From the IMG/VR virus record IMGVR_UViG_2660238600_000001, positions 1 through 9,649 of that record: a stretch of 9,649 nt of DNA; one strand, 5' to 3'. Position 1 is the first letter of the stretch, and every line of letters begins with the position of its first letter. This DNA comes from a virus. Taxonomy: Duplodnaviria; Heunggongvirae; Uroviricota; Caudoviricetes. The notes beneath the pieces are model-generated. The model saw nothing but the letters and a program-made list of their open reading frames with translations. It searched no databases and was not told the DNA's origin. The position numbers and the translations under genes were made by a program. Positions 1 through 9,649 of the stretch are shown piece by piece.

Positions 1-231
1 ATCATTTGCGGGTGCATGGCCCGTCTGAAAAAGAACAACAGCGATTTGCATGATTTATTAGTAGATTATTATATAGTCGGTATGACATTCATGTCACTGG
101 CAGGTAAGCATTGCTGCTCTGATGGTTATATCGGGAAAAGGTTACAAAAGGCTGAGGGCATAATTGAAGGGATGTTAATGGCATTAGATATCCGGTTAGA
201 GATAGATATCGTTGTTAATAACTCTAATTAA
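1..231 (+). CDS. 3' portion of a Q-like late-gene antiterminator (5' end lies outside the window)
   Basis: Frame 1 is open from base 1 ([20 protein letters not shown]...HCCSDGY...) to TAA at 229-231. Cys/His-rich as expected for zinc-binding Q proteins; lies directly upstream of the porin and lysis cassette as in DLP12-type prophages. Identity rests on recollection and synteny only. Confidence 0.45.
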
Positions 232-264
232 TACGCCAATTATTTACTAAAAGTTATTAAAAAT

Positions 265-288
265 GGGGCGTTGAAGCGCCCCCAAAAA
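265..288 (-). terminator. Intrinsic terminator read on the minus strand, downstream of the porin gene
   Basis: Stem GGGGCG (265-270) / CGCCCC (277-282) with 6-nt loop; on the minus strand the hairpin is followed by ATTTTT. No T-run on the plus strand. Confidence 0.4.
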
Positions 289-322
289 TAAAGGGTAATA
301 TATAACAGAAGGTTTGTATAGT

Positions 323-409
323 TAGAAGCAAGGTTGTGCTTCTAAAGGAAGTGGCTTGAGGGAGCCACTTATATGTTGGGGAGGCAAAGCCTCCCACAAC
401 ATATCTTTT
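323..409. other. Three consecutive perfect stem-loops between the Q-like ORF and the porin 3' end; the last may act as a plus-strand terminator
   Basis: Hairpins at 323-344 (8-bp stem), 349-370 (8-bp stem) and 371-404 (about 14-bp stem with one bulge), the last followed by CTTTTA at 405-410. Confidence 0.35.
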
Positions 410-419
410 AGTAATCAAA

Positions 420-1502
420 TTAGAACTGGTAAACCATACCTACAGCAACGATATCATCGGTAGCAACGCCAGATGCTTTCGTGAAATCGCTCTTATCAAT
501 CAGGTTGATTTTGTAGTCAACAAAAGTGGACATATTTTTGTTGAAGTAATAGGTTGCACCTACATCAACATATTCAACCAGGTCCTGATCACCCCAAACA
601 CCCAAGTCTTTTCCTTTAGAATGCAGGTAAGCAACGGATGGACGCAGGCCGAAGTCGAACTGATATTGTGCAACAGCTTCGAAGTTTTGTGCTTTGTTGG
701 CAATATGGTTATTACCAAAAACAGTCATGTTCTGGGTTTCAGAATAGGTGGTGGCCAGATAGATGTTGTTCGCATCATATTTCAGACCAGCTGCCCATAC
801 TTCAGCATTTTGACCAGAAGCATTCAGACCGTTGTTACCGAGGATAACCTGATTATTAGTGCGATCAGATTTAGCATAGGTTGCACCCACGCCGAATCCT
901 TCATACTCATAAGTAGTTGAGAAACCGAAACCATCGCCATTAGCTTCAGTTACTTCATTTCGGTCATTTTTGCCCTGATACTGAGCTGCAAAGTTCAGGC
1001 CATCAACCAGACCAAAGAAGTCGTTGTTACGATAAGTTGCAACACCTGTGGTGCGACCAGTCATGAATACATCTGTTTGGGTCCAGGTATCGCCACCGAA
1101 TTCTGGCAGAACGTCGGTCCATGCACCAATATCGTATGCTACACCGTAGTTACGGCCATAATCGATGGAGCCGTAGTCACCGAATTTCAGGCCAGCGAAG
1201 GCAAGACGGGTTTTATCTTTGGAGGAACCTTGAGATTCAGCGCGGTTGCCTTTGAATTCATATTCCCACTGACCGAAACCAGTCAGTTGATCGTTGATTT
1301 GGGTTTCACCTTTGAAGCCAAGACGGGCATAAGTAGTATCACCATCATCTGCATCATTAGAGGAGAAGTAGTGCTTAGCATTAACTTTCCCGTACAGATC
1401 CAGCTTGTTACTGTCTTTATTATAAATTTCAGCTGCCTGAGCAGACATCGCCATCAGTACTGATGCAGCTACAGCAGAAATTGCCACTGTTAATTTTTTC
1501 AT
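420..1502 (-). CDS. nmpC: Outer-membrane general porin, NmpC/OmpD/Lc subfamily of the OmpC/OmpF/PhoE family (prophage-borne)
   Basis: 360-aa minus-strand ORF from ATG at 1502-1500 to TAA at 422-420. Signal peptide [23 protein letters not shown], then [16 protein letters not shown], internal PEFGGD loop motif, and C-terminal ...VAVGMVYQF ending in Phe. The track's longer ORF adds 17 upstream codons with no signal-peptide logic. Confidence 0.9.
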
Positions 1503-1900
1503 CGTGAGACCTTTTTTTGAACATTTATTAAAAAATGATGCCCTGCGCGACAAATATTCATCTAATCAATGTGATTAATTCAAGATGTAAGTTTTAGATT
1601 CTTATTTAAATTGTGATCTAGATCTCTATTTTTATCTGAACTTTTTCTAATGCATGCTGTGCATGACTATTCTCTGAAAGAAAATAAATTTGGTAGCTAA
1701 ATTATATTAAAGGTTGTTATTTATAAGTGTTCTATAATTCATCTCTTTAATTTAAATTCACTGAAAATAACGTCGGAAATTATTTAATGATTATTTGTTT
1801 ATTTTTCCTTATGTGATTGTGGTGGTGTTTTGAACACTCGATATCATTCTCACAAATATTGTTTAGAGGTTTACGTACGTAAAAAATTGGTTATGCTGTT
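1503..1900 (-). promoter_or_regulatory. AT-rich upstream regulatory region of the porin gene (promoter not pinned down)
   Basis: About 400 bp of markedly AT-rich DNA with A/T tracts immediately 5' of the porin start. No unambiguous -35/-10 pair could be assigned by eye. Confidence 0.3.
1870..1897 (+). promoter_or_regulatory. Candidate sigma70 promoter; possible late-promoter (pR'-like) equivalent
   Basis: TTTACG (1870-1875), 16-bp spacer, TATGCT (1892-1897), about 30 bp upstream of a strong intrinsic terminator. Functional assignment is inference. Confidence 0.25.
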
Positions 1901-1927
1901 AAGAGTGGTTACTTCGCCACACAGCTT

Positions 1928-1953
1928 AAACCCGCCGTCGAGCGGGTTTTTTT
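1928..1953 (+). terminator. Rho-independent terminator (tR'-like position)
   Basis: AAACCCGC (1928-1935) / GCGGGTTT (1943-1950) stem with 7-nt loop, followed by a run of seven T (1947-1953). Confidence 0.6.
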
Positions 1954-2076
1954 GTACCTGTAAACCTGGTGCAGTACGGTAAACACGCTGGTGGTCGTGA
2001 ATACTGACTTTTTATCTTGCTGGCTTTTTAGACAAGAGTTATTGGTATGTCATGTTAACCATGAAGGTAAAAAGAC

Positions 2077-2271
2077 ATGCTAAAACAGCTAGATATGACA
2101 GAAACGGCGAAAGTTGTTTTTAATGAATTAAACGGCAAACCGGCAACAGTCGGGGAGATTGCACAAAACACATACCTTTCACGCGAACGCTGTCAGTTAA
2201 TACTGACCCAGCTGGTTATGGCGGGGCTGGCAGATTACCAGTTCGGCTGTTACAGACGCCTTCAGCAATGA
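2077..2271 (+). CDS. Small hypothetical protein (64 aa) with helix-turn-helix-like core
   Basis: ATG at 2077 with AAGG 9 nt upstream; segment ATVGEIAQNTYLSRERCQLILTQLVMAGL looks like a (winged) HTH. No family recognised. Confidence 0.5.
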   Translation: MLKQLDMTETAKVVFNELNGKPATVGEIAQNTYLSRERCQLILTQLVMAGLADYQFGCYRRLQQ

Positions 2272-2420
2272 AGGGCTTTTAATTTGTGAAAATGGGCGGC
2301 TGGTGGGTGTTGGTAGCACCTGCCAGCCATTCGCTCATGCTTACTGGTCACAAGCGAACCACGGCCCACTGCTTTAGCGCAAAAGCAGAGTGAGCCTACC
2401 AGAGTTACGCTTACTGATCC

Positions 2421-3473
2421 ATGAAAAATACTGTGAAAATAAACAGTACTGATTTAATCAACGCTGATTGCCTGCATTTTATTCAGTCCCTGCCTGATGA
2501 TTCCATTGACCTGATTGTTACCGATCCGCCGTACTTCAAGGTGAAACCCAACGGTTGGGACAATCAGTGGAAAGGGGACGAAGATTACCTGAAGTGGCTG
2601 GACCACTGTCTGGCTCAGTTCTGGCGGGTGCTGAAACCTGCCGGAAGCCTTTACCTGTTCTGTGGACATCGCCTCGCATCTGATATCGAGATCATGATGC
2701 GTGAACGTTTCAACGTTCTTAACCATATTATCTGGGCGAAGCCGTCCGGACGATGGAACGGGTGTAATAAAGAAAGTCTGCGCGCATATTTTCCCGCAAC
2801 AGAACGCGTTCTGTTTGCTGAACATTACCAGGGACCATATCGCGGCAAAAGTGACGGCTATGCGGCAAAAGAAAGTCAACTCAAACAGCACATAATGGCA
2901 CCGCTGATTTCGTATTTCAGGGATGCTCGTGCCGAACTGGGTATAACGGCAAAACAGATTGCCGAAGCCACTGGTAAGAAAAATATGGTTTCCCACTGGT
3001 TTGGTGCCAGTCAGTGGCAGTTGCCGAATGAGGCTGACTACCGGAAGTTGCAGGCACTGTTTTCCCGTATAGCGGCAGAGAAATTTCAGGAACAACAACT
3101 GGAACAACCACACCACCAGCTGGTGGCATCTTATGATTCACTGAATCGCAAATATTCTGAATTGCTGGATGAGTTTAAAACTCTCCGGCGCTATTTCTCC
3201 GTATCAGTTTCCGTGCCTTATACCGATGTCTGGACGCATAAACCCGTTCAGTTCTACCCGGGTAAACATCCGTGTGAGAAGCCTGCGGATATGCTCCGGC
3301 AAATAATCAGTGCCAGTAGTCGACAAGGCGATCTGGTTGCTGATTTCTTTATGGGATCCGGTTCCACAATAAAAGCGGCAATGGCGCTGGGGCGTCGGGC
3401 GTTAGGTGTTGAACTTGAGTCAGAGCGGTTTAATCAGACGGTGAAAGAGGTAAGTGAACTGGTGGGGAAATAA
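2421..3473 (+). CDS. Orphan DNA methyltransferase, beta-class amino-methyltransferase (N6-adenine or N4-cytosine)
   Basis: 350-aa ORF. Catalytic motif IV DPPY near the N-terminus (LIVTDPPYF) and AdoMet motif I near the C-terminus (DLVADFFMGSGST), i.e. beta-class order. No restriction endonuclease gene is adjacent. Confidence 0.9.
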   Translation: MKNTVKINSTDLINADCLHFIQSLPDDSIDLIVTDPPYFKVKPNGWDNQWKGDEDYLKWLDHCLAQFWRVLKPAGSLYLFCGHRLASDIEIMMRERFNVLNHIIWAKPSGRWNGCNKESLRAYFPATERVLFAEHYQGPYRGKSDGYAAKESQLKQHIMAPLISYFRDARAELGITAKQIAEATGKKNMVSHWFGASQWQLPNEADYRKLQALFSRIAAEKFQEQQLEQPHHQLVASYDSLNRKYSELLDEFKTLRRYFSVSVSVPYTDVWTHKPVQFYPGKHPCEKPADMLRQIISASSRQGDLVADFFMGSGSTIKAAMALGRRALGVELESERFNQTVKEVSELVGK

Positions 3474-3480
3474 TTCTGGT

Positions 3481-3506
3481 GGCCACGTTGCGTGGCCTTT
3501 TTATTT
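3481..3506 (+). terminator. Rho-independent terminator after the methyltransferase gene
   Basis: GGCCACG (3481-3487) / CGTGGCC (3491-3497) stem with 3-nt loop, followed by TTTTTATTT. Confidence 0.55.
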
Positions 3507-3549
3507 CCAACACAGCACCCGCAAATATCGCGAGGTGAGAGATGACGAA

Positions 3550-3885
3550 ATGCCTCATAACCCAAATACCTGGCCGGACTGGCTGGAGTTGTTTCAGAGC
3601 TGGTGGCGTGGAGATACGCCGCTGGGCGCAGTGATTATGTCGATTGTTATGGCTGGTTTGCGCATCGCCTATTTTGGCGGTGGTGGTGGCTGGAAGCGAA
3701 AAACGCTCGAGATTTTGCTATGTGGCGCTCTGACGTTGACCTTTGCATCCGCGCTTGAGTATGTCGGATGGCCTAAATCGCTTTCTGTTGCCATTGGTGG
3801 TGGGGTGGGGCTGATCGGTGTCGATGCTATTCGTGGGGCTGCAATGAGAGTAATCGGTAACAAGTTTGGTAGCTCGAAGGAGTAA
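3550..3885 (+). CDS. Holin, lambda S-like class I (three predicted transmembrane segments)
   Basis: ATG at 3550 preceded by GAGGTGA; three hydrophobic stretches (LGAVIMSIVMAGLRIAYF, TLEILLCGALTLTFASALEYV, LSVAIGGGVGLIGVDAI) and a charged C-terminus; directly upstream of R. The track's 3454 start would put the terminator hairpin inside the coding region. Confidence 0.7.
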   Translation: MPHNPNTWPDWLELFQSWWRGDTPLGAVIMSIVMAGLRIAYFGGGGGWKRKTLEILLCGALTLTFASALEYVGWPKSLSVAIGGGVGLIGVDAIRGAAMRVIGNKFGSSKE

Positions 3886-3888
3886 TTT

Positions 3889-4365
3889 ATGCAGGTACTA
3901 AATTCCCAGCGTAAAGCTTTCCTGGATATGGTTGCATGGTCAGAAGGAACGGATAACGGGCGACAACCGACACGTAACCACGGTTATGATGTTATTGTCG
4001 GTGGTGAACTGTTTACTGATTACTCCGATCACCCTCGCAAACTTGTCACGCTAAACCCAAAACTCAAATCAACAGCAGCCGGACGTTACCAGCTTCTTTC
4101 CCGTTGGTGGGATGCCTATCGTAAGCAGCTTGGCCTGAAAGACTTCTCTCCGAAAAGCCAGGACGCTGTGGCATTGCAACAGATTAAAGAGCGTGGCGCT
4201 TTACCGATGATTGACCGCGGTGATATTCGTCAGGCAATCGACCGTTGCAGCAATATCTGGGCTTCATTGCCGGGCGCTGGTTATGGTCAGTTCGAGCATA
4301 AGGCTGACAGTCTGATTTCAAAATTCAAAGAAGCAGGCGGAACGGTCAGAGAGATTGAGGCATGA
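3889..4365 (+). CDS. R: Endolysin, lambda R-type lytic transglycosylase
   Basis: 158 aa, nearly collinear with lambda R as recalled ([22 protein letters not shown]...[24 protein letters not shown]...). The catalytic Glu of the WSEGT motif is present. Confidence 0.92.
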
Positions 4366-4820
4366 GCAGAGTCACCGCGATTATCTCCGCTCTGGTTATC
4401 TGCATCATCGTCTGCCTGTTATGGGCTGTTAATCATTACCGTGATAACGCAATCGCCTACAAAGAGCAGCGCGATAACAAGGCCAGTGAACTGGAGAAGG
4501 CGAACGCCACCATCGCTGACATGCGGAAGCGTCAACGTGATGTAGCAGAACTCGACGCAAGATACACAAAGGAGCTTGCTGATGCTAACGCGACTATCGA
4601 AAGTCTCCGTGCTGATGTTTCTGCTGGGCGTAAGCGCCTGCAAGTCGCCGCCACCTGTGCAAAGTCAACGACCGGAGCCAGCGGCATGGGCGATGGAGAA
4701 AGCCCAGGACTTACAGCAGATGCTGAACTCAATTATTACCGTCTCCGAAGTGGAATCGACAAGATAACCGCGCAGGTTAACTACCTGCAGGAATACATCA
4801 GGACGCAATGCCTGAAATAA
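4362..4820 (+). CDS. Rz: Rz inner-membrane spanin (i-spanin)
   Basis: ATGA start/stop overlap with R; N-terminal transmembrane segment [23 protein letters not shown] followed by a charged coiled-coil region; closely lambda Rz-like. Confidence 0.9.
4582..4767 (+). CDS. Rz1: Rz1 outer-membrane lipoprotein spanin (o-spanin), embedded in the +1 frame of Rz
   Basis: ATG at 4582 with AGGAG 8 nt upstream; lipoprotein signal with lipobox (LLGVSAC), then a proline-rich segment ([15 protein letters not shown]). The track's TTG start at 4576 is less likely. Confidence 0.8.
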
Positions 4821-4851
4821 TTTTTTTGCAAATCACAAAGTCCATTTAATG

Positions 4852-4877
4852 AGCCTCGCGATGCGGGGCTTTTTTTA
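4852..4877 (+). terminator. Rho-independent terminator after the lysis cassette
   Basis: AGCCTCGC (4852-4859) / GCGGGGCT (4863-4870) stem with one G-U pair, followed by TTTTTTT (4870-4876). Confidence 0.6.
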
Positions 4878-5025
4878 CATCTGAATTTCACAGCGCATCT
4901 CACGCGCATATTACATCACCCGAGCCTTTCAGAAAGTTGAGCCTGAGAACTGCCGTATATGGTGGCGACCATCTCGGGGCGGCTTTTCTGTGAGACAGGC
5001 TCACTTTCTAAAAGGTAAAGACGCT

Positions 5026-5514
5026 ATGAACCAATTAGAAGAAAAGCTTCAAAGAATGATTTCCTTATACAAGGAAGATAACTGCCAAAAAGTTCCTGAA
5101 AACATCGCAGAGTTAATGGAATTGGCAAGTGAATTTTCTGGCATGCTTAAGTCGTCAGGTGTTCGGTCAGCGTTCTTTGTTGAAATGCTGATGCACGGCG
5201 GACTTATGGCAACAATGAGACGTGTAATGGAAGACCAGAGAAAAGAACCTCCTCAGGTATACGTTTTGTCATCGAAGAAAACTGGGCTAACCAAAATTGG
5301 GTATTCATCCAACATTCCACAACGCATCAAATCGCTTGGCAACTCTGGACCAGACTGCTTGAAGCTTGAGTGCCTGATCCCTGGTGGAAGAGAAACTGAA
5401 AACATGCTTCATCGCAAATTTGCCGCAAAGAGAAAGCACGGTGAATGGTTCGCCCTGTCCAAGGATGACATTGAGGGATTGAAATCTGTAGCGATTACTT
5501 CTGATGGCTATTAA
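5026..5514 (+). CDS. T5orf172 (GIY-YIG superfamily-like) domain protein with an unassigned helical N-terminal region; moron at the lambda bor position
   Basis: ATG at 5026 with AAAGG upstream, 162 aa. C-terminal half carries the T5orf172-type pattern: VYVLSS...GLTKIGYS...RIKSL...LKLECLIPGGRETENMLHRKFAAKRKHGEWFAL. The N-terminal 90 aa matches nothing I recognise. Confidence 0.7.
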   Translation: MNQLEEKLQRMISLYKEDNCQKVPENIAELMELASEFSGMLKSSGVRSAFFVEMLMHGGLMATMRRVMEDQRKEPPQVYVLSSKKTGLTKIGYSSNIPQRIKSLGNSGPDCLKLECLIPGGRETENMLHRKFAAKRKHGEWFALSKDDIEGLKSVAITSDGY

Positions 5515-5554
5515 TGCTTGTTTAGAGCAATTTTCATAACAACTCTTCATTACA

Positions 5555-5583
5555 AAGCCCATCTACTGGTGGGCTTGATAATG
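5555..5583. repeat. Hairpin-GATAATG element, copy 1
   Basis: AAGCCCA (5555-5561) / TGGGCTT (5570-5576) stem with 8-nt loop, immediately followed by GATAATG (5577-5583). Confidence 0.4.
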
Positions 5584-5828
5584 AAACCGTGATTTACATC
5601 CCCACAATCCGGGTATGTAAAAGATAGTTCAGGCGAGAACGGATTTAACTAAATCTGTGCGCCACCAGTTAACGGCAGTACCACGAAACAACCCAAGCCA
5701 GTAAGTGGGGAAATAACACCGGCAGCCACTGAAAGATGAACCTCCTGCCTTATGGCAAAAAAGATTCTTTGTGGTGGCGGACTGATGGAAAGACATCCTA
5801 ATTTCAGCCAAACATTGAAGGAGTTGTT

Positions 5829-5900
5829 ATGTCAGCAGAAGGTTTCAATAACCCATCAAAATTCCGGGATGAGTGGGATAGCAGCGTAAAGAGTAAGTGA
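5829..5900 (+). CDS. Very short ORF (23 aa) with strong ribosome-binding site; coding status uncertain
   Basis: GAAGGAG (5817-5823), 5-nt spacer, ATG 5829: MSAEGFNNPSKFRDEWDSSVKSK. Its TGA overlaps the ATG of a 12-codon ORF (5900-5938, MPSQKPFPTEWL) as TGATG. Confidence 0.2.
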   Translation: MSAEGFNNPSKFRDEWDSSVKSK

Positions 5901-5910
5901 TGCCATCACA

Positions 5911-5943
5911 AAAGCCATTCCCTACAGAGTGGCTTTGATAATG
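5911..5943. repeat. Hairpin-GATAATG element, copy 2
   Basis: AAAGCCA (5911-5917) / TGGCTTT (5930-5936) stem with 12-nt loop, followed by GATAATG (5937-5943). Stem differs from copy 1 by compensatory changes while the 3' heptamer is conserved. Confidence 0.4.
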
Positions 5944-6192
5944 GCTTATACCCTACACGGGATAACTTAACTGATATCCCTTTTAAAGGATAAAGGTATT
6001 CAAGCCTGACACATCATGCGCTGTATCGTCGCCGTATTCCCGTATTAACAGAGACCGTAGCCCGACGGGGAACTCCTTCTGCGCGAGTGTGTGGGAATAA
6101 TCAAAAACGATGCACACCGGGGTTACCGGGTACACATATTTCATCATGCCAGCGAGTCCGGTTCTGGCACGGAAGAAACCGGACGTTATGAT

Positions 6193-6603
6193 TTAGTGCG
6201 GAAATATTTGTGTAGTGTTCTGAATGTTCTCAGTAAAGAGTAATGAATTATCAAAGGTATAGTAATACCTTTTGTTTTCGTGGATATTTGTAATCCATCT
6301 GAAAACCCCTGCAGTAGCAAGATTTTTCCTGTATTCGTAAAATGATAACTCTCCTGATTTGAATCCTTTTAAGGTGGCTTCTATAAGGCATTTATTTTTT
6401 GAAAATCTTACATTTACAACCTTACCCTGTCCTTTTATTAAAACCGTATTATCGTTTTCAAGAACAAGATGAATATTCTCTGTGGCTAAATAGTAAATGT
6501 AATGTGAGACATTGTGACGTTTTAGTTCAGAATAAAACCAGTGATAGTTTAAATTATTTCGCACTTTATCGAATATTTGTTTAAAAATGGCAACCTGAGC
6601 CAT
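6193..6603 (-). CDS. AT-rich hypothetical protein, 136 aa (YbcV / DUF1398-like by recollection)
   Basis: Start at ATG 6603 (MAQVAIFKQ...) preferred over 6618 because GGAAGG lies 8 nt upstream on the minus strand. Markedly lower GC than flanking genes; Tyr/Asn/Lys-rich. Family assignment is from memory of the equivalent DLP12/lambda right-arm ORF. Confidence 0.6.
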
Positions 6604-6659
6604 TGTAGTACCTTCCATGTGATATGAGGGGTGTAGTCTGCACGATTATCTAAATTGCT

Positions 6660-6893
6660 TCAATCTGGTCTGATCTGTTTTCTGAGCAATTCAGTAATGT
6701 CACTCTTTTCTTTGTTTGCTTCAGGAGAAACTCTTTTTTCTGAGCACAGTCTCCGGCGGCAGGCTTCAATGACCCAGGCTGAGAAATTCCCGGACCCTTT
6801 TTGATCAAGAGCGATGTTAATTTGTTCAATCATTTGGTTAGGAAAGCGGATGTTGCGGGTTGTTGTTCTGCGGGTTCTGTTCTTCGTTGACAT
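6660..6893 (-). CDS. Ribbon-helix-helix (Arc/MetJ/CopG-like) putative DNA-binding protein, 77 aa
   Basis: Basic N-terminus then RNIRFPNQMIEQINIALDQKGSGNFSAWVIEACRRRL, i.e. a beta-strand / helix / helix layout like Arc. ATG at 6893; weak RBS. Confidence 0.6.
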   Translation of the reverse strand: MSTKNRTRRTTTRNIRFPNQMIEQINIALDQKGSGNFSAWVIEACRRRLCSEKRVSPEANKEKSDITELLRKQIRPD

Positions 6894-7062
6894 GAGGTTG
6901 TCCCGTATTCAGTGTCGCTGATTTGTATTGTCTGAAGTTGTTTTTACGTTAAGTTGATGCAGATCAATTAATATGATACCTGCGTCATAATTGATTATTT
7001 GACGTGGTTTGATGGCGTAGATGCACGTTGTGACATGCAGATGATAATTATTATCATTTTGC

Positions 7063-7262
7063 GGGTCCTTTCCGGCGATCCGACAGGTTACGGGGCGGCG
7101 ACCTCGCGGGTTTTCGCTATTTATGAAAATTTTCCGGTTTAAGGCATTTCCGTTCTTCTTCGTCGTAACTTAATGTTTTTATTTAAAATATCCCCTGAAA
7201 AGAAAGGAAACGACAGGTGCTGAAAACGAGCTTTTGGGCCTCTGTCGTTTCCTTTCTCTGTT
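7063..7262 (+). other. Lambda-type cos site: cosQ (about 7063-7069), cosN with 12-nt cohesive-end sequence GGGCGGCGACCT (7093-7104), cosB with R3/I1/R2/R1 (about 7145-7258)
   Basis: ...GGGTCCTTTCCGGCGATCCGACAGGTTACG | GGGCGGCGACCTCGCGGGTTTTCGCTATTTATGAAAATTTTCCGG... matches the recalled junction of lambda right and left ends. Repeated R-site cores at 7145-7162, 7202-7217 (inverted) and 7242-7258, with an A/T-rich bend site between. Confidence 0.85.
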
Positions 7263-7281
7263 TTTGGCCGTGGAATGAACA

Positions 7282-7827
7282 ATGGAAGTCAACAAAAAGC
7301 AGCTGGCTGACATTTTCGGTGCGAGTATCCGTACCATTCAGAACTGGCAGGAACAGGGAATGCCAGTTCTGCGAGGCGGTGGCAAGGGTAATGAGGTGCT
7401 TTATGACTCTGCCGCCGTTATAAGATGGTATGCCGAAAGGGATGCTGAAATTGAGAACGAAAAGCTGCGCCGGGAAGTTGAAGAACTGCGGCAGGCCAGC
7501 GAGACAGATCTCCAGCCAGGGACTATTGAGTACGAACGCCATCGACTTACGCGTGCGCAGGCCGACGCACAGGAGCTGAAAAATGCCAGAGACTCCGCTG
7601 AAGTGGTGGAAACCGCATTCTGTACTTTCGTGCTGTCGCGGATCGCAGGTGAAATTGCCAGTATTCTCGACGGGATCCCCCTGTCGGTGCAGCGGCGTTT
7701 TCCGGAACTGGAAAACCGACATGTTGATTTCCTGAAACGGGATATCATCAAAGCCATGAACAAAGCAGCCGCGCTGGATGAACTGATACCGGGGTTGCTG
7801 AGTGAATATATCGAACAGTCAGGTTAA
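7282..7827 (+). CDS. nu1: Terminase small subunit Nu1
   Basis: 181 aa, near-identical to lambda Nu1 as recalled (MEVNKKQLADIFGASIRTIQNWQEQGMPVLRGGGKGNEVLYDSAAV...); N-terminal winged HTH; overlaps A by 26 nt as in lambda. Confidence 0.95.
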   Translation: MEVNKKQLADIFGASIRTIQNWQEQGMPVLRGGGKGNEVLYDSAAVIRWYAERDAEIENEKLRREVEELRQASETDLQPGTIEYERHRLTRAQADAQELKNARDSAEVVETAFCTFVLSRIAGEIASILDGIPLSVQRRFPELENRHVDFLKRDIIKAMNKAAALDELIPGLLSEYIEQSG

Positions 7828-8056
7828 CAGGCTGCGGCATTTTGTCCGCGCCGGGCTTCGCTCACTGTTCAGGCCGGAGCCACAGACCGCCGTTGAATGG
7901 GCGGATGCTAATTACTATCTCCCGAAAGAATCCGCATACCAGGAAGGGCGCTGGGAAACACTGCCCTTTCAGCGGGCCATCATGAATGCGATGGGCAGCG
8001 ACTACATCCGTGAGGTGAATGTGGTGAAGTCTGCCCGTGTCGGTTATCTCCGGTGA
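7802..8056 (+). pseudogene. A: Terminase large subunit A, N-terminal remnant (about 82 codons, then a 2-codon out-of-context tail)
   Basis: MNISNSQVNRLRHFVRAGLRSLFRPEPQTAVEWADANYYLPKESAYQEGRWETLPFQRAIMNAMGSDYIREVNVVKSARVGY matches the lambda A N-terminus; after VGY the frame reads LR-stop. The ATPase and nuclease domains are absent. Confidence 0.85.
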
Positions 8057-8075
8057 GCCGGAGGAGTATTTCCGG

Positions 8076-8675
8076 ATGTCGCCGGAGGACTGGCTGCGGG
8101 CAGAAATGCAGGGTGAGATTGTGGCGCTGGTCCACAGCCACCCCGGTGGTCTGCCCTGGCTGAGTGAGGCCGACCGGCGGCTGCAGGTGCAGAGTGATTT
8201 GCCGTGGTGGCTGGTCTGCCGGGGGACGATTCATAAGTTCCGCTGTGTGCCGCATCTCACCGGGCGGCGCTTTGAGCACGGTGTGACGGACTGTTACACA
8301 CTGTTCCGGGATGCTTATCATCTGGCGGGGATTGAGATGCCGGACTTTCATCGTGAGGATGACTGGTGGCGTAACGGCCAGAATCTCTATCTGGATAATC
8401 TGGAGGCGACGGGGCTGTATCAGGTGCCGTTGTCAGCGGCACAGCCGGGCGATGTGCTGCTGTGCTGTTTTGGTTCATCAGTGCCGAATCACGCCGCAAT
8501 TTACTGCGGCGACGGCGAGCTGCTGCACCATATTCCTGAACAACTGAGCAAACGAGAGAGGTACACCGACAAATGGCAGCGACGCACACACTCCCTCTGG
8601 CGTCACCGGGCATGGCGCGCATCTGCCTTTACGGGGATTTACAACGATTTGGTCGCCGCATCGACCTTCGTGTGA
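8076..8675 (+). CDS. K: Tail tip assembly protein K (JAMM/MPN plus NlpC/P60 domains), apparently full length
   Basis: ATG at 8076 with GGAGGAG 9 nt upstream; 199 aa; JAMM motif HSHPGGLPWLSEAD and NlpC/P60 Cys region GVTDCYTLFRDAYHLAG. Length and the 103-nt overlap with I match my recollection of lambda K. Confidence 0.8.
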   Translation: MSPEDWLRAEMQGEIVALVHSHPGGLPWLSEADRRLQVQSDLPWWLVCRGTIHKFRCVPHLTGRRFEHGVTDCYTLFRDAYHLAGIEMPDFHREDDWWRNGQNLYLDNLEATGLYQVPLSAAQPGDVLLCCFGSSVPNHAAIYCGDGELLHHIPEQLSKRERYTDKWQRRTHSLWRHRAWRASAFTGIYNDLVAASTFV

Positions 8676-9118
8676 AAACGGGGGCTGAAGCCATCCGGGC
8701 ACTGGCCACACAGCTCCCGGCGTTTCGTCAGAAACTGAGCGACGGCTGGTATCAGGTACGGATTGCCGGGCGGGACGTCAGCACGTCCGGGTTAACGGCG
8801 CAGTTACATGAGACTCTGCCTGATGGCGCTGTGATTCATATTGTTCCCAGAGTCGCCGGGGCCAAGTCAGGTGGCGTATTCCAGATTGTCCTGGGGGCTG
8901 CCGCCATTGCCGGATCATTCTTTACCGCCGGAGCCACCCTTGCAGCATGGGGGGCAGCCATTGGGGCCGGTGGTATGACCGGCATCCTGTTTTCTCTCGG
9001 TGCCAGTATGGTGCTCGGTGGTGTGGCGCAGATGCTGGCACCGAAAGCCAGAACTCCCCGTACACAGACAACGGATAGCCGCGCTGACAGACAATACGCA
9101 GGGGGCAGCAGGTCTTGA
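8573..9118 (+). pseudogene. I: Tail assembly protein I, truncated (about 170 N-terminal residues, then an unrelated 12-residue tail)
   Basis: MAATHTLPLASPGMARICLYGDLQRFGRRIDLRVKTGAEAIRAL...[19 protein letters not shown] follows lambda I, then diverges ([13 protein letters not shown]-stop); lambda I is about 223 aa by recollection. Confidence 0.75.
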
Positions 9119-9122
9119 GTTA

Positions 9123-9649
9123 TACGAGGTGTATAACAACGGATATCCAACAGCGTATGGAAATATCATTCACCTGAAAGGGATGACAGCCGTTGGCGAA
9201 GGTGAGTTACTCATCGGCTGGAGTGGTACAAGCGGTGCTCATGCTCCGGCATTTATTCGTTCACGACGGGATATGACCGGCGCAAACTGGTCGCCGTGGG
9301 CGCAGCTTTACACCTCGGCTCATCCTCCTGCAGAGTTTTATCCAGTCGGTGCACCAATCCCGTGGCCATCAGATACCGTTCCGTCTGGTTATGCCCTGAT
9401 GCAGGGGCAGACTTTTGACAAATCTGCTTACCCGAAACTTGCAGCCGCTTATCCGTCAGGCGTGATCCCTGATATGCGTGGCTGGACGATTAAGGGCAAG
9501 CCCGCCAGTGATCGAGCCGTATTGTCTCAGGAACAGGACGGCATTAAATCACACACCCACAGCGCCAGCGTATCCAGTACGGATTTGGGGACGAAAACCA
9601 CATCGTCGTTTGATTACGGCACTAAATCCACGAATAACACTGGTGCGCA
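9123..9649 (+). pseudogene. Side tail-fibre C-terminal fragment (Stf-like), no own start, continues beyond the window; left boundary approximate
   Basis: Frame 0 reads ...[62 protein letters not shown]...[76 protein letters not shown]...[13 protein letters not shown]. The last two thirds match the lambda Stf C-terminal module as recalled. Confidence 0.65.

Follow-up and report, generated by a model that had tools for sequence, protein, structure and literature searches.

A T5orf172-type gene between the lysis and packaging genes of a lambdoid prophage lies behind a leader hairpin shared with unrelated accessory genes

T5orf172 proteins are common in phages as homing endonucleases. They occur most often near terminase genes and mark genetic-exchange boundaries, and for one of them, Odn of phage ICP1, nuclease activity has been demonstrated and depends on a glutamate (PMC8263062; PMC10448857). 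CapR-like zinc fingers are found on 87% of the ICP1-type T5orf172 homing endonucleases (Barth et al. 2021, 2023), and the homing endonuclease genes (HEGs) of this type have a domesticated relative in CapR (PMC8096241). We analyzed a gene with a T5orf172 domain in a stretch of 9,649 nucleotides (IMG/VR virus record IMGVR_UViG_2660238600_000001, positions 1 to 9,649), which is called the window here. The gene lies between the lysis and packaging genes of a lambdoid prophage. A preliminary description of the window had taken it for a self-contained cassette at the bor position and had proposed a single-gene defence or superinfection-exclusion function for it. The most noteworthy result is what stands before it: a covarying leader that hides the Shine–Dalgarno (SD) sequence and is common to interchangeable accessory genes. 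The gene, its domains and the leader elements are the following.

5026 to 5514, plus strand: T5orf172/MUG113 (GIY-YIG superfamily) gene, 162 amino acids, HK106 gp64 family, PHROG 4284
5026 to 5250, plus strand: N-domain, residues 1-75, a predicted acidic three-helix bundle restricted to this protein family
5254 to 5490, plus strand: catalytic-type T5orf172 domain, residues 77-155, with a predicted beta-beta-alpha-beta-alpha core
4851 to 4877, plus strand: intrinsic terminator after Rz, first leader element; a 9-bp stem (4851-4871) with 6 GC pairs, then a T-run
4893 to 4907, plus strand: small GC hairpin (GCGC-ATCTCAC-GCGC) in the minimum free energy fold, second leader element
4924 to 5016, plus strand: imperfect hairpin of ~95 nt, folding z -4.2

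The product read from ATG 5026 to the stop codon ending at 5514 has the 162 amino acids given in the preliminary description and is identical to RefSeq WP_016245257.1, a "GIY-YIG nuclease family protein". The whole protein falls in phrog_4284, function unknown (PHROGs, 9e-88), and an NCBIfam scan of it gave no match. Judged by its sequence, the gene is an already annotated family member (RefSeq, HK106 gp64, PHROG 4284), and the annotation is by homology. The mechanical open reading frame (ORF) is longer (4990-5514, GTG start, 174 amino acids), and some gene callers adopt that start (P0003). We rejected it; the added codons run through the leader common to unrelated genes. Since everything upstream of ATG 5026, including the SD sequence AAAAGG at 5010-5015, is leader common to unrelated downstream genes, ATG 5026 is the real start. 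A scan of the genome contigs for relatives returned a single locus. Identical (100%) copies of the gene occur in many genomes and viral contigs, and truncated or frameshifted copies occur in other genomes (P0010-P0012, P0015). The same gene is also in Escherichia coli phage Chlobot, where it adjoins DLP12-like ybcV/ylcI/Nu1 genes.

The terminator that had been placed after Rz is indeed there, with its stem and T-run directly after the gene, and the same terminator is annotated in HK106 and epsilon34. Every other copy of the leader also has an intrinsic terminator and a small GC hairpin upstream; in L135, L181, L183, HK97 and P22, the stems of the GC hairpins are altered and still complementary (by eye, unscored). 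In the ~95-nt hairpin, the basal helix pairs G4924-U4929 (CCUUU) with A5011-U5016 and thus covers the SD sequence AAAGG at 5011-5015. The leaders of four phages, though diverged, take the same shape when folded singly (z -2.3 to -4.3). A MAFFT-only alignment of six sequences has compensatory changes in 6 of 27 pairs. In an alignment of 21 distinct sequences that was fitted to the covariance model, pairing holds in 98.4% of cells, against 80% in shuffles and 42-47% when the partners are slid, and compensatory changes occur in 27 of 31 pairs (101 cells); the margin is large, and the independent folds concur. The G–U pairs of the hairpin are on the plus strand. The covariance model (R1) finds the leader always on the sense strand, before T5orf172, Rha and KilA-N genes, two HNH_3+AP2 genes and one unknown 141-amino-acid gene. 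Against Rfam, positions 4830-6000 gave nothing near a gathering score, the best matches being 22 bits versus 59 and 20 bits versus 42.

Three other copies of the leader deserve mention. In L137 (1416-2029), an HNH_3+AP2 gene follows an R1-type leader (41 bits, E 2.5e-7) that has a terminator upstream. Because this copy sits between Q and the holin, the combination, which we call a cassette head, is not limited to the slot after Rz. L089 (IMGVR_UViG_3300045988_020911, minus strand, ~250-925) has an HNH_3+AP2 gene of 183 amino acids (HNH_3 7.9e-19) with its own terminator, GC hairpin and leader. The stop codon of this gene, TAA, falls in CTTTCTAAAAGG, within the 3' arm of the next leader, which belongs to an Rha gene. 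The arrangement resembles insertion of a homing endonuclease into a leader hairpin and leaves the Rha SD sequence unsequestered and possibly translationally coupled. In P22 (L006 868-974; NC_002371 ~39538-39644), the leader model matches 868-971, and ATG 974 opens an Rha of 178 amino acids, which can be aligned with the Rha alleles elsewhere. The start annotated for rha in P22 (GTG, locus 905, 201 amino acids) falls within the hairpin, probably too far upstream.

HK620, epsilon34, P22, HK97 and ST64T share conserved sequence between the Rz terminator and the start codon and diverge from the ATG onward. On the right, homology with the Rha/KilA-N phages returns at 5548, 33 bp past the stop codon. 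By this comparison, what is swapped is little more than the ORF, 5026-5547. The cassette is therefore not self-contained, as the 148-bp leader through the ATG and the downstream modules are backbone common to the Rha/KilA-N phages. A 16-mer from the leader drew 120 IMG/VR contigs, of which 98 have the leader, and we classified the 90 having a full-length ORF (at least 140 amino acids) behind it. The ORF is Rha in ~69, KilA-N in ~8, the present T5orf172 in 9 and the epsilon34-type T5orf172 in 3; the Pfam assignments of these alleles are Phage_pRha+ORF11CD3, KilA-N+ORF11CD3 and T5orf172. The exact leader variant of the window precedes four different ORFs. The site itself is fixed, with the same leaders and downstream modules around T5orf172, Rha or KilA-N ORFs. 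Orthologues at 76-83% identity (in Salmonella, Klebsiella and others) and at 49% identity are always between spanin and terminase genes, and this position is kept although the lysis cassettes and the terminases differ in type.

A comparison of occupants across related phages, which the preliminary description had proposed, finds Rha, KilA-N, HNH-AP2 or Tad2-like genes in the slot. Because homing-type HNH-AP2 nucleases and a Tad2-like gene also occupy it, we suggest that the slot holds phage-side conflict genes. The Tad2-like protein is that of phage Louie (L005 1600-2067; Thoeris anti-defence 2-like domain, PF11195, 9.3e-27), which is recorded as "anti-CRISPR" and has no hairpin leader before it. 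In Klebsiella variicola (L135 4001-5187; GCA_029476385.4), a 76%-identical orthologue is followed by a 232-amino-acid DNA/RNA non-specific endonuclease (PF01223, 2.9e-38), whose start overlaps the stop codon of the orthologue; the pair is possibly a two-nuclease module.

The C-terminal half of the protein had been read as T5orf172 from its motifs, and the profile search that was to check this agrees. Residues 78-151 match Pfam MUG113 (PF13455; 6e-15, 56 bits, cutoff 22.3) and T5orf172 (PF10544; 2.8e-10, 41 bits, cutoff 20), both above the curated thresholds; the Pfam GIY-YIG match is 0.19. All the named motifs are present: V78-Y79-V80, K90-I91-G92-Y93-S94, R100, E125 and G139-E140-W141-F142. 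Y79, K90, I91, G92, R100, E125, H129, R136, G139, E140, W141 and F142 are 91-99% conserved in 156 diverse homologues, and all are kept here. The histidine/tyrosine of helix 1 is missing, and the arginine and glutamate are kept, as in ICP1 Odn. An AlphaFold2 model from a 10-sequence family alignment (predicted local distance difference test score 87) gives the C-domain as beta 77-83, beta 89-94, alpha 97-105, beta 112-119, alpha 122-131, a short beta and alpha 146-155, so that in the model, the GIY-YIG core fold (beta-beta-alpha-beta-alpha) is present. The N-domain, which had been described as 90 helical residues of no assigned family, is helical in the model (helices 3-20, 23-43 and 49-71) and has no Pfam or NCBIfam match, but it is ~75 residues long. 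By our own count, its net charge is -2 and that of the C-domain +5. An exhaustive phmmer search found 11,204 representative clusters with the C-terminal domain. The alignment extends through the N-domain in only about a dozen of them, and the N-domain is therefore specific to a small family of ~160-amino-acid proteins; epsilon34 gp68 (33% identity) belongs to this family. Kinship of the N-domain with ORF11CD3, the C-domain of the Rha/KilA-N alleles, was considered and rejected (hhalign probability 0.04%). Both domains are under purifying selection (dN/dS 0.08-0.15 against orthologues at 76-83% amino acid identity). Our analysis makes an active DNA endonuclease the most probable product.

What such a nuclease would do can be approached through its structural matches. 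A family-profile sequence search of solved structures gave nothing below E 0.9, and Foldseek of the full model against the PDB gave nothing significant. The best structural matches are the SLX1 structure-specific nucleases, with T4 EndoII and PD-T4-3 also matched. SLX1 and EndoII, the latter a small stand-alone GIY-YIG enzyme, bring in the idea of a late nuclease of phage DNA metabolism, which would degrade host DNA as EndoII does or trim and resolve branched concatemers before packaging in the manner of SLX1. Such a role would explain conservation beside the terminase genes. It also fits the position strictly kept between lysis and terminase genes, the lack of a sequence-specific DNA-binding domain, and the translational coupling to an Endonuclease_NS gene in the Klebsiella prophage. 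However, the slot is dispensable and is mostly filled by non-nuclease Rha/KilA-N genes, Rap/RusA-type resolvases are already present in the lambdoid nin region, and tight translational gating suits a toxic accessory gene better than a housekeeping one. We regard this role as quite unlikely.

One variant bears on whether catalysis is needed at all. A Salmonella protein, P0002, representing a cluster of 114 member sequences, is 98% identical and carries D110Y and E140G (GGWF for GEWF); E140 is 97% conserved across the domain family. P0002 may be an inactivated or domesticated form. The protein might then be a non-catalytic DNA-binding regulator, equivalent to the Bro-network (Rha/KilA-N) proteins that it replaces and comparable to CapR of the PLE satellite. 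A network of Bro, KilA and T5orf172 domains was reportedly described by Iyer et al. in 2002, the first descriptions of T5orf172 had it as a partner domain of Bro-N/KilA-N proteins (PMC8096241), and the gene is a positional allele of the Rha/KilA-N+ORF11CD3 genes with the same leader. We consider the regulator improbable; all the near-invariant residues, including R100 and E125, are kept under purifying selection, and the N-domain resembles neither ORF11CD3 nor any DNA-binding fold.

For an active endonuclease, the question is when it is made. The gene and the Q-dependent late operon have the same orientation. Q-modified RNA polymerase passes through terminators. The orientation, the upstream terminator, the lack of a sigma-70 promoter and the SD sequence within a conserved hairpin together point to Q-dependent late expression, not prophage expression. 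Because the terminator stops read-through and no promoter of its own was found, the gene would be silent in the prophage, and because the product would be toxic, its translation through the hairpin may be low and gated. We therefore tentatively favour, at a little under an even chance, a tightly gated, late-expressed accessory DNA endonuclease for conflict between phages or between phage and satellite, possibly homing-like, and not a defence gene expressed by the lysogen. The mechanism we propose is as follows. The late operon would contain a conserved "socket" made of the terminator, the GC hairpin, the ~95-nt SD-pairing hairpin, an interchangeable ORF and backbone hairpin modules. Only the Q-modified, terminator-resistant polymerase would transcribe the ORF, late in lytic growth. 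The product would be a Mg2+-dependent DNA endonuclease whose C-domain cuts DNA and whose acidic three-helix N-domain would serve oligomerisation or the choice of partner or target. The targets would be competing DNA, from co-infecting or resident related phages or from satellites, and homing-like or marker-exclusion effects for the slot are possible. In the present defective prophage, the gene would be a still-intact passenger.

The preliminary description had proposed a defence or superinfection-exclusion gene at a moron site. On this reading, the prophage would express a nuclease that is directed at incoming phage DNA or sets off abortive infection. Several observations are in its favour. 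The gene is intact and near-identical in 76 E. coli genomes, including defective prophages. It is an extra gene at the bor position in lambda and DLP12, replaced by borD or other genes elsewhere. Its GC content is below that of the flanks (43-45% at the gene and slot versus 50-53% in the upstream lysis genes). GIY-YIG/T5orf172 domains are known in defence proteins, the structural matches include PD-T4-3, and there is a weak PADLOC match to the candidate family PDC-S57 (E 7e-6). That match spans only the shared domain (profile 3-83 of 212); PADLOC-DB v2 gave no full-length match to a defence model, and no partner genes are nearby. The one PADLOC match among the neighbours was an orphan Type II methyltransferase 1.5 kb upstream, and other loci show no linkage between it and the gene. 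A moron is also at odds with the lack of a sigma-70 promoter of its own, the terminator upstream of the gene, the stem downstream (hairpin 1 below) that has no T-run, the late-operon orientation and the sequestered SD sequence. Furthermore, the Rha, KilA-N, HNH-AP2 and Tad2-like alleles are phage-side functions, and the gene holds the same late-operon position in the lytically competent phages HK106, Chlobot and epsilon34. The defence or moron reading is thus without specific support and runs against the expression logic of the site; we think it unlikely.

The late, gated endonuclease has its own difficulties. No sigma-70 promoter was found on the plus strand at 4700-6160 by a scan for the sigma-70 consensus only. 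No recognisable sequence-specific DNA-binding domain is attached, by Pfam, NCBIfam and structure matches, and there is no CapR-type zinc finger; structure comparison of the N-domain gave only generic three-helix-bundle matches, neither helix-turn-helix nor zinc finger. T5orf172 is a minority allele, 12 of the 90 contigs, and the whole 4800-6100 segment is present in 76 of 5426 complete E. coli genomes. The E140G change in the widespread Salmonella variant hints that catalysis is not always required. The coding sequence (CDS) is 99.2% identical with a leader at 86%, which might have marked a self-mobilising gene. The Rha allele shows the same contrast (99.4% versus 89%), and therefore the nuclease is not singled out in this way. 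This shared contrast, the lack of a DNA-binding domain and the acidic N-domain argue against classical homing. Literature searches turned up no paper that mentions this protein family and no functional study on the protein accession, HK106 gp64, PDC-S57 or phage MUG113.

The stretch downstream of the gene, 5515-5995, folds far better than its shuffles (z -5.6 on the plus strand and -4.4 on the minus strand). It is divided as follows.

5548 to 5589: module A, containing hairpin 1
5546 to 5585, plus strand: hairpin 1, right limit of the swapped ORF unit; inverted repeat I2, 16 nt, 88% complementary
5590 to 5662: module B
5663 to 5797, plus strand: module C, the most widespread backbone segment (P22, ST64T, HK97, epsilon34, HK620, HK106, Louie)
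5798 to 5926, plus strand: module D, a facultative insert found among phages in HK544 and Emek only; strong SD sequence and 20-codon mini-ORF at 5829
5902 to 5945, plus strand: hairpin 2, paralogue of hairpin 1
5927 to 5994, plus strand: module E, end of the HK-type homology; 3' arm of hairpin 2, weak terminator-like hairpin, SD-like AAAGGATAAAGG
5959 to 5980 plus TTTT, plus strand: the weak terminator-like hairpin

The preliminary description was right that this tail of ~475 bp is structured and has no convincing ORF. It is nonetheless a mosaic of backbone modules and not part of the gene; diverged orthologues of the gene do not carry it. Comparison across phages found no conserved ORF in 5515-5995, and searches for tRNA, tmRNA and Rfam families in the non-coding stretch found none. 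Three short ORFs were considered as coding and not accepted. A minus-strand ORF of 60 amino acids across module C meets a stop or frameshift in HK620, P22 and Louie. A plus-strand ORF starting MAKKILCGGGLMERH (5752-5889; orf-118 in ST64T) has its 5' end conserved in all the module-C phages, but only the first ~15-24 codons are kept, it diverges at the module junction and it has no SD sequence; it may be a remnant or a real micro-ORF. The 20-codon ORF at 5829 is within the facultative module. An 11-nt perfect long-range complement, 5535-5545 with 5821-5831, was set aside, since by our own estimate ~0.2 such pairs are expected by chance.

Hairpin 1 has a stem like that of a terminator and no T-run. 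The motif ATCACAAAG(N)CCAT has three copies, at 4832-4846, 5549-5563 and 5905-5919, and the second and third supply the 5' arms of hairpin 1 and hairpin 2, whose ends read GGCTT(T)GATAATG. The two hairpins differ from each other by compensatory changes and resemble the terminator stems of other cassette heads (e.g., L137 and L010), again without the T-run. Both could be terminators that have decayed, or else joints for recombination. The region 5902-5994 is annotated "terminator" in phage Ayreon.

Around the gene, the window has the following features.

16 to 231: end of the Q gene
420 to 1553, minus strand: OmpC/NmpC-like porin
near 1930 to 1955: late-terminator-like hairpin
2421 to 3473, plus strand: Type II-like DNA methyltransferase
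3454 to 4820: lambda-S-family holin, endolysin, Rz/Rz1
4362 to 4820: Rz (Pfam Phage_lysis 2e-39)
6193 to 6618, minus strand: DUF1398 (ybcV-like)
6660 to 6893, minus strand: DUF3950 (ylcI-like)
7282 to 7827: Nu1, intact (PF07471 2.4e-101)
7802 to 8056, plus strand: gpA fragment of 84 amino acids, abutting tail genes K and I

We identify the window as a defective lambdoid prophage resembling DLP12, with a segment of the HK106/HK97 type from R-Rz to 5994. HK106 is 90% identical over 3907-5797, with DLP12-type sequence on both sides. The right edge had been put at about 5990; similarity of the HK106/HK97/P22 type stops at 5994, and DLP12-type sequence (the ybcV side) starts again at 6017, from where it matches K-12 DLP12 downstream of borD. 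The counterpart interval in K-12 DLP12 is the 3' part of rzpD plus borD, which places the gene at the bor position as described. Upstream of the late genes is a strong intrinsic terminator, AAACCCGCCGTCGAGCGGGTTTTTTT (1882-1955, plus strand), with a weak Rfam Trp_leader match (23 bits, E 0.44); it is probably a tR'-type terminator overridden by Q. The methyltransferase (350 amino acids; PADLOC PDLC03265 2.2e-152) is an orphan in the late operon, between the late terminator and the holin. A restriction-modification pair of the methyltransferase and the GIY-YIG gene was ruled out, as the methyltransferase is absent from every other locus of the gene, including the otherwise closest genome, L001. 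At the right end (7802-9118, plus strand), a K-like protein next to the gpA remnant has the end of a JAB domain and NlpC/P60, and tail protein I follows. With the gpA fragment directly adjoining K and I, both the head genes and most of the tail genes have been lost, seemingly in one single deletion.

In a prophage that has lost its head and most tail genes, the gene could be a functionless relic, which is compatible with any ancestral function; truncated or frameshifted copies elsewhere agree with this. We give it a slim chance, as the ORF is intact, copies with 100% identity to it occur in many genomes and viral contigs, and Q, the late terminator, holin, endolysin and Rz upstream are also intact.

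Returning to the late, gated endonuclease and its leader, a broader proposal would be that the terminator, the GC hairpin and the SD-sequestering hairpin form an undescribed cis-regulatory RNA, the cassette head of lambdoid phages. It would silence interchangeable toxic conflict genes (T5orf172, HNH-AP2, Rha/KilA-N) in lysogens, throttle them in lytic growth and serve as a recombination or homing joint, and the 162-amino-acid protein would be a minimal homing-type or anti-competitor nuclease whose N-domain gives target choice. We consider this possible though doubtful. What the analysis adds is twofold. A compact architecture, a three-helix bundle plus T5orf172, joins a nuclease family whose characterisation has only just started, as phage homing endonucleases and anti-satellite weapons, and the gene is present in the tractable coliphages HK106 and Chlobot. 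The lysis–packaging interval of P22-like and HK97-like phages appears as a regulated socket, with a covarying SD-hiding leader before any accessory gene plugged into it. If confirmed, the socket would explain how temperate phages safely carry toxic conflict genes and why genes in this region are exchanged with ORF precision. The original claim of a prophage defence gene has no specific evidence.

Among known systems, HK106 gp64 (YP_007151734) is the same gene (CDS pN 0.003, pS 0), also placed after the Rz terminator and before the packaging genes, and epsilon34 gp68, a member with 33% identity, occupies this site too and has the same leader. Together with g341c gp64, PHROG 4284 and WP_016245257.1, they show no material difference from the window gene, and all are annotated by homology. 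The ICP1 T5orf172 HEGs and Odn (Gp88; Barth et al. 2021, 2023) are alike in having a C-terminal T5orf172 domain with the arginine and glutamate and an N-terminal accessory domain, and in being phage-borne, often near terminase genes and at genetic-exchange boundaries. They differ in being larger, with CapR-like zinc-finger or RepA_N DNA-binding domains where the window protein has a 75-residue acidic bundle. The host phage of the window gene is temperate and lambdoid, unlike theirs. The free-standing GIY-YIG enzymes I-TevI and Seg of T4 have an N-terminal catalytic domain and a long C-terminal DNA-binding region, unlike the window protein; compared with I-TevI, Seg/Mob and EndoII of T4, the window subfamily has a lysine (K90) for the YIG tyrosine and lacks the helix-1 histidine/tyrosine. 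PDC-S57 and PD-T4-3 share the T5orf172/GIY-YIG domain with it.

Two relationships are positional. Lambda bor and DLP12 borD occupy the same interval downstream of Rz and are likewise an extra gene of lower GC content than the late flanks. The bor gene encodes a lipoprotein, lies on the opposite strand and has its own promoter, from which it is expressed in lysogens. The window gene is unlike it in being co-oriented with the late operon, with no detectable promoter, a terminator upstream and a sequestered SD sequence. Rha (P22, phi80), hkbK of HK620 and KilA-N of HK97 are unrelated to the window protein in sequence and fold, with a DNA-binding N-domain plus ORF11CD3 and no nuclease domain. Yet they are its positional alleles, with the same leader, the same start-codon context and the same downstream modules.

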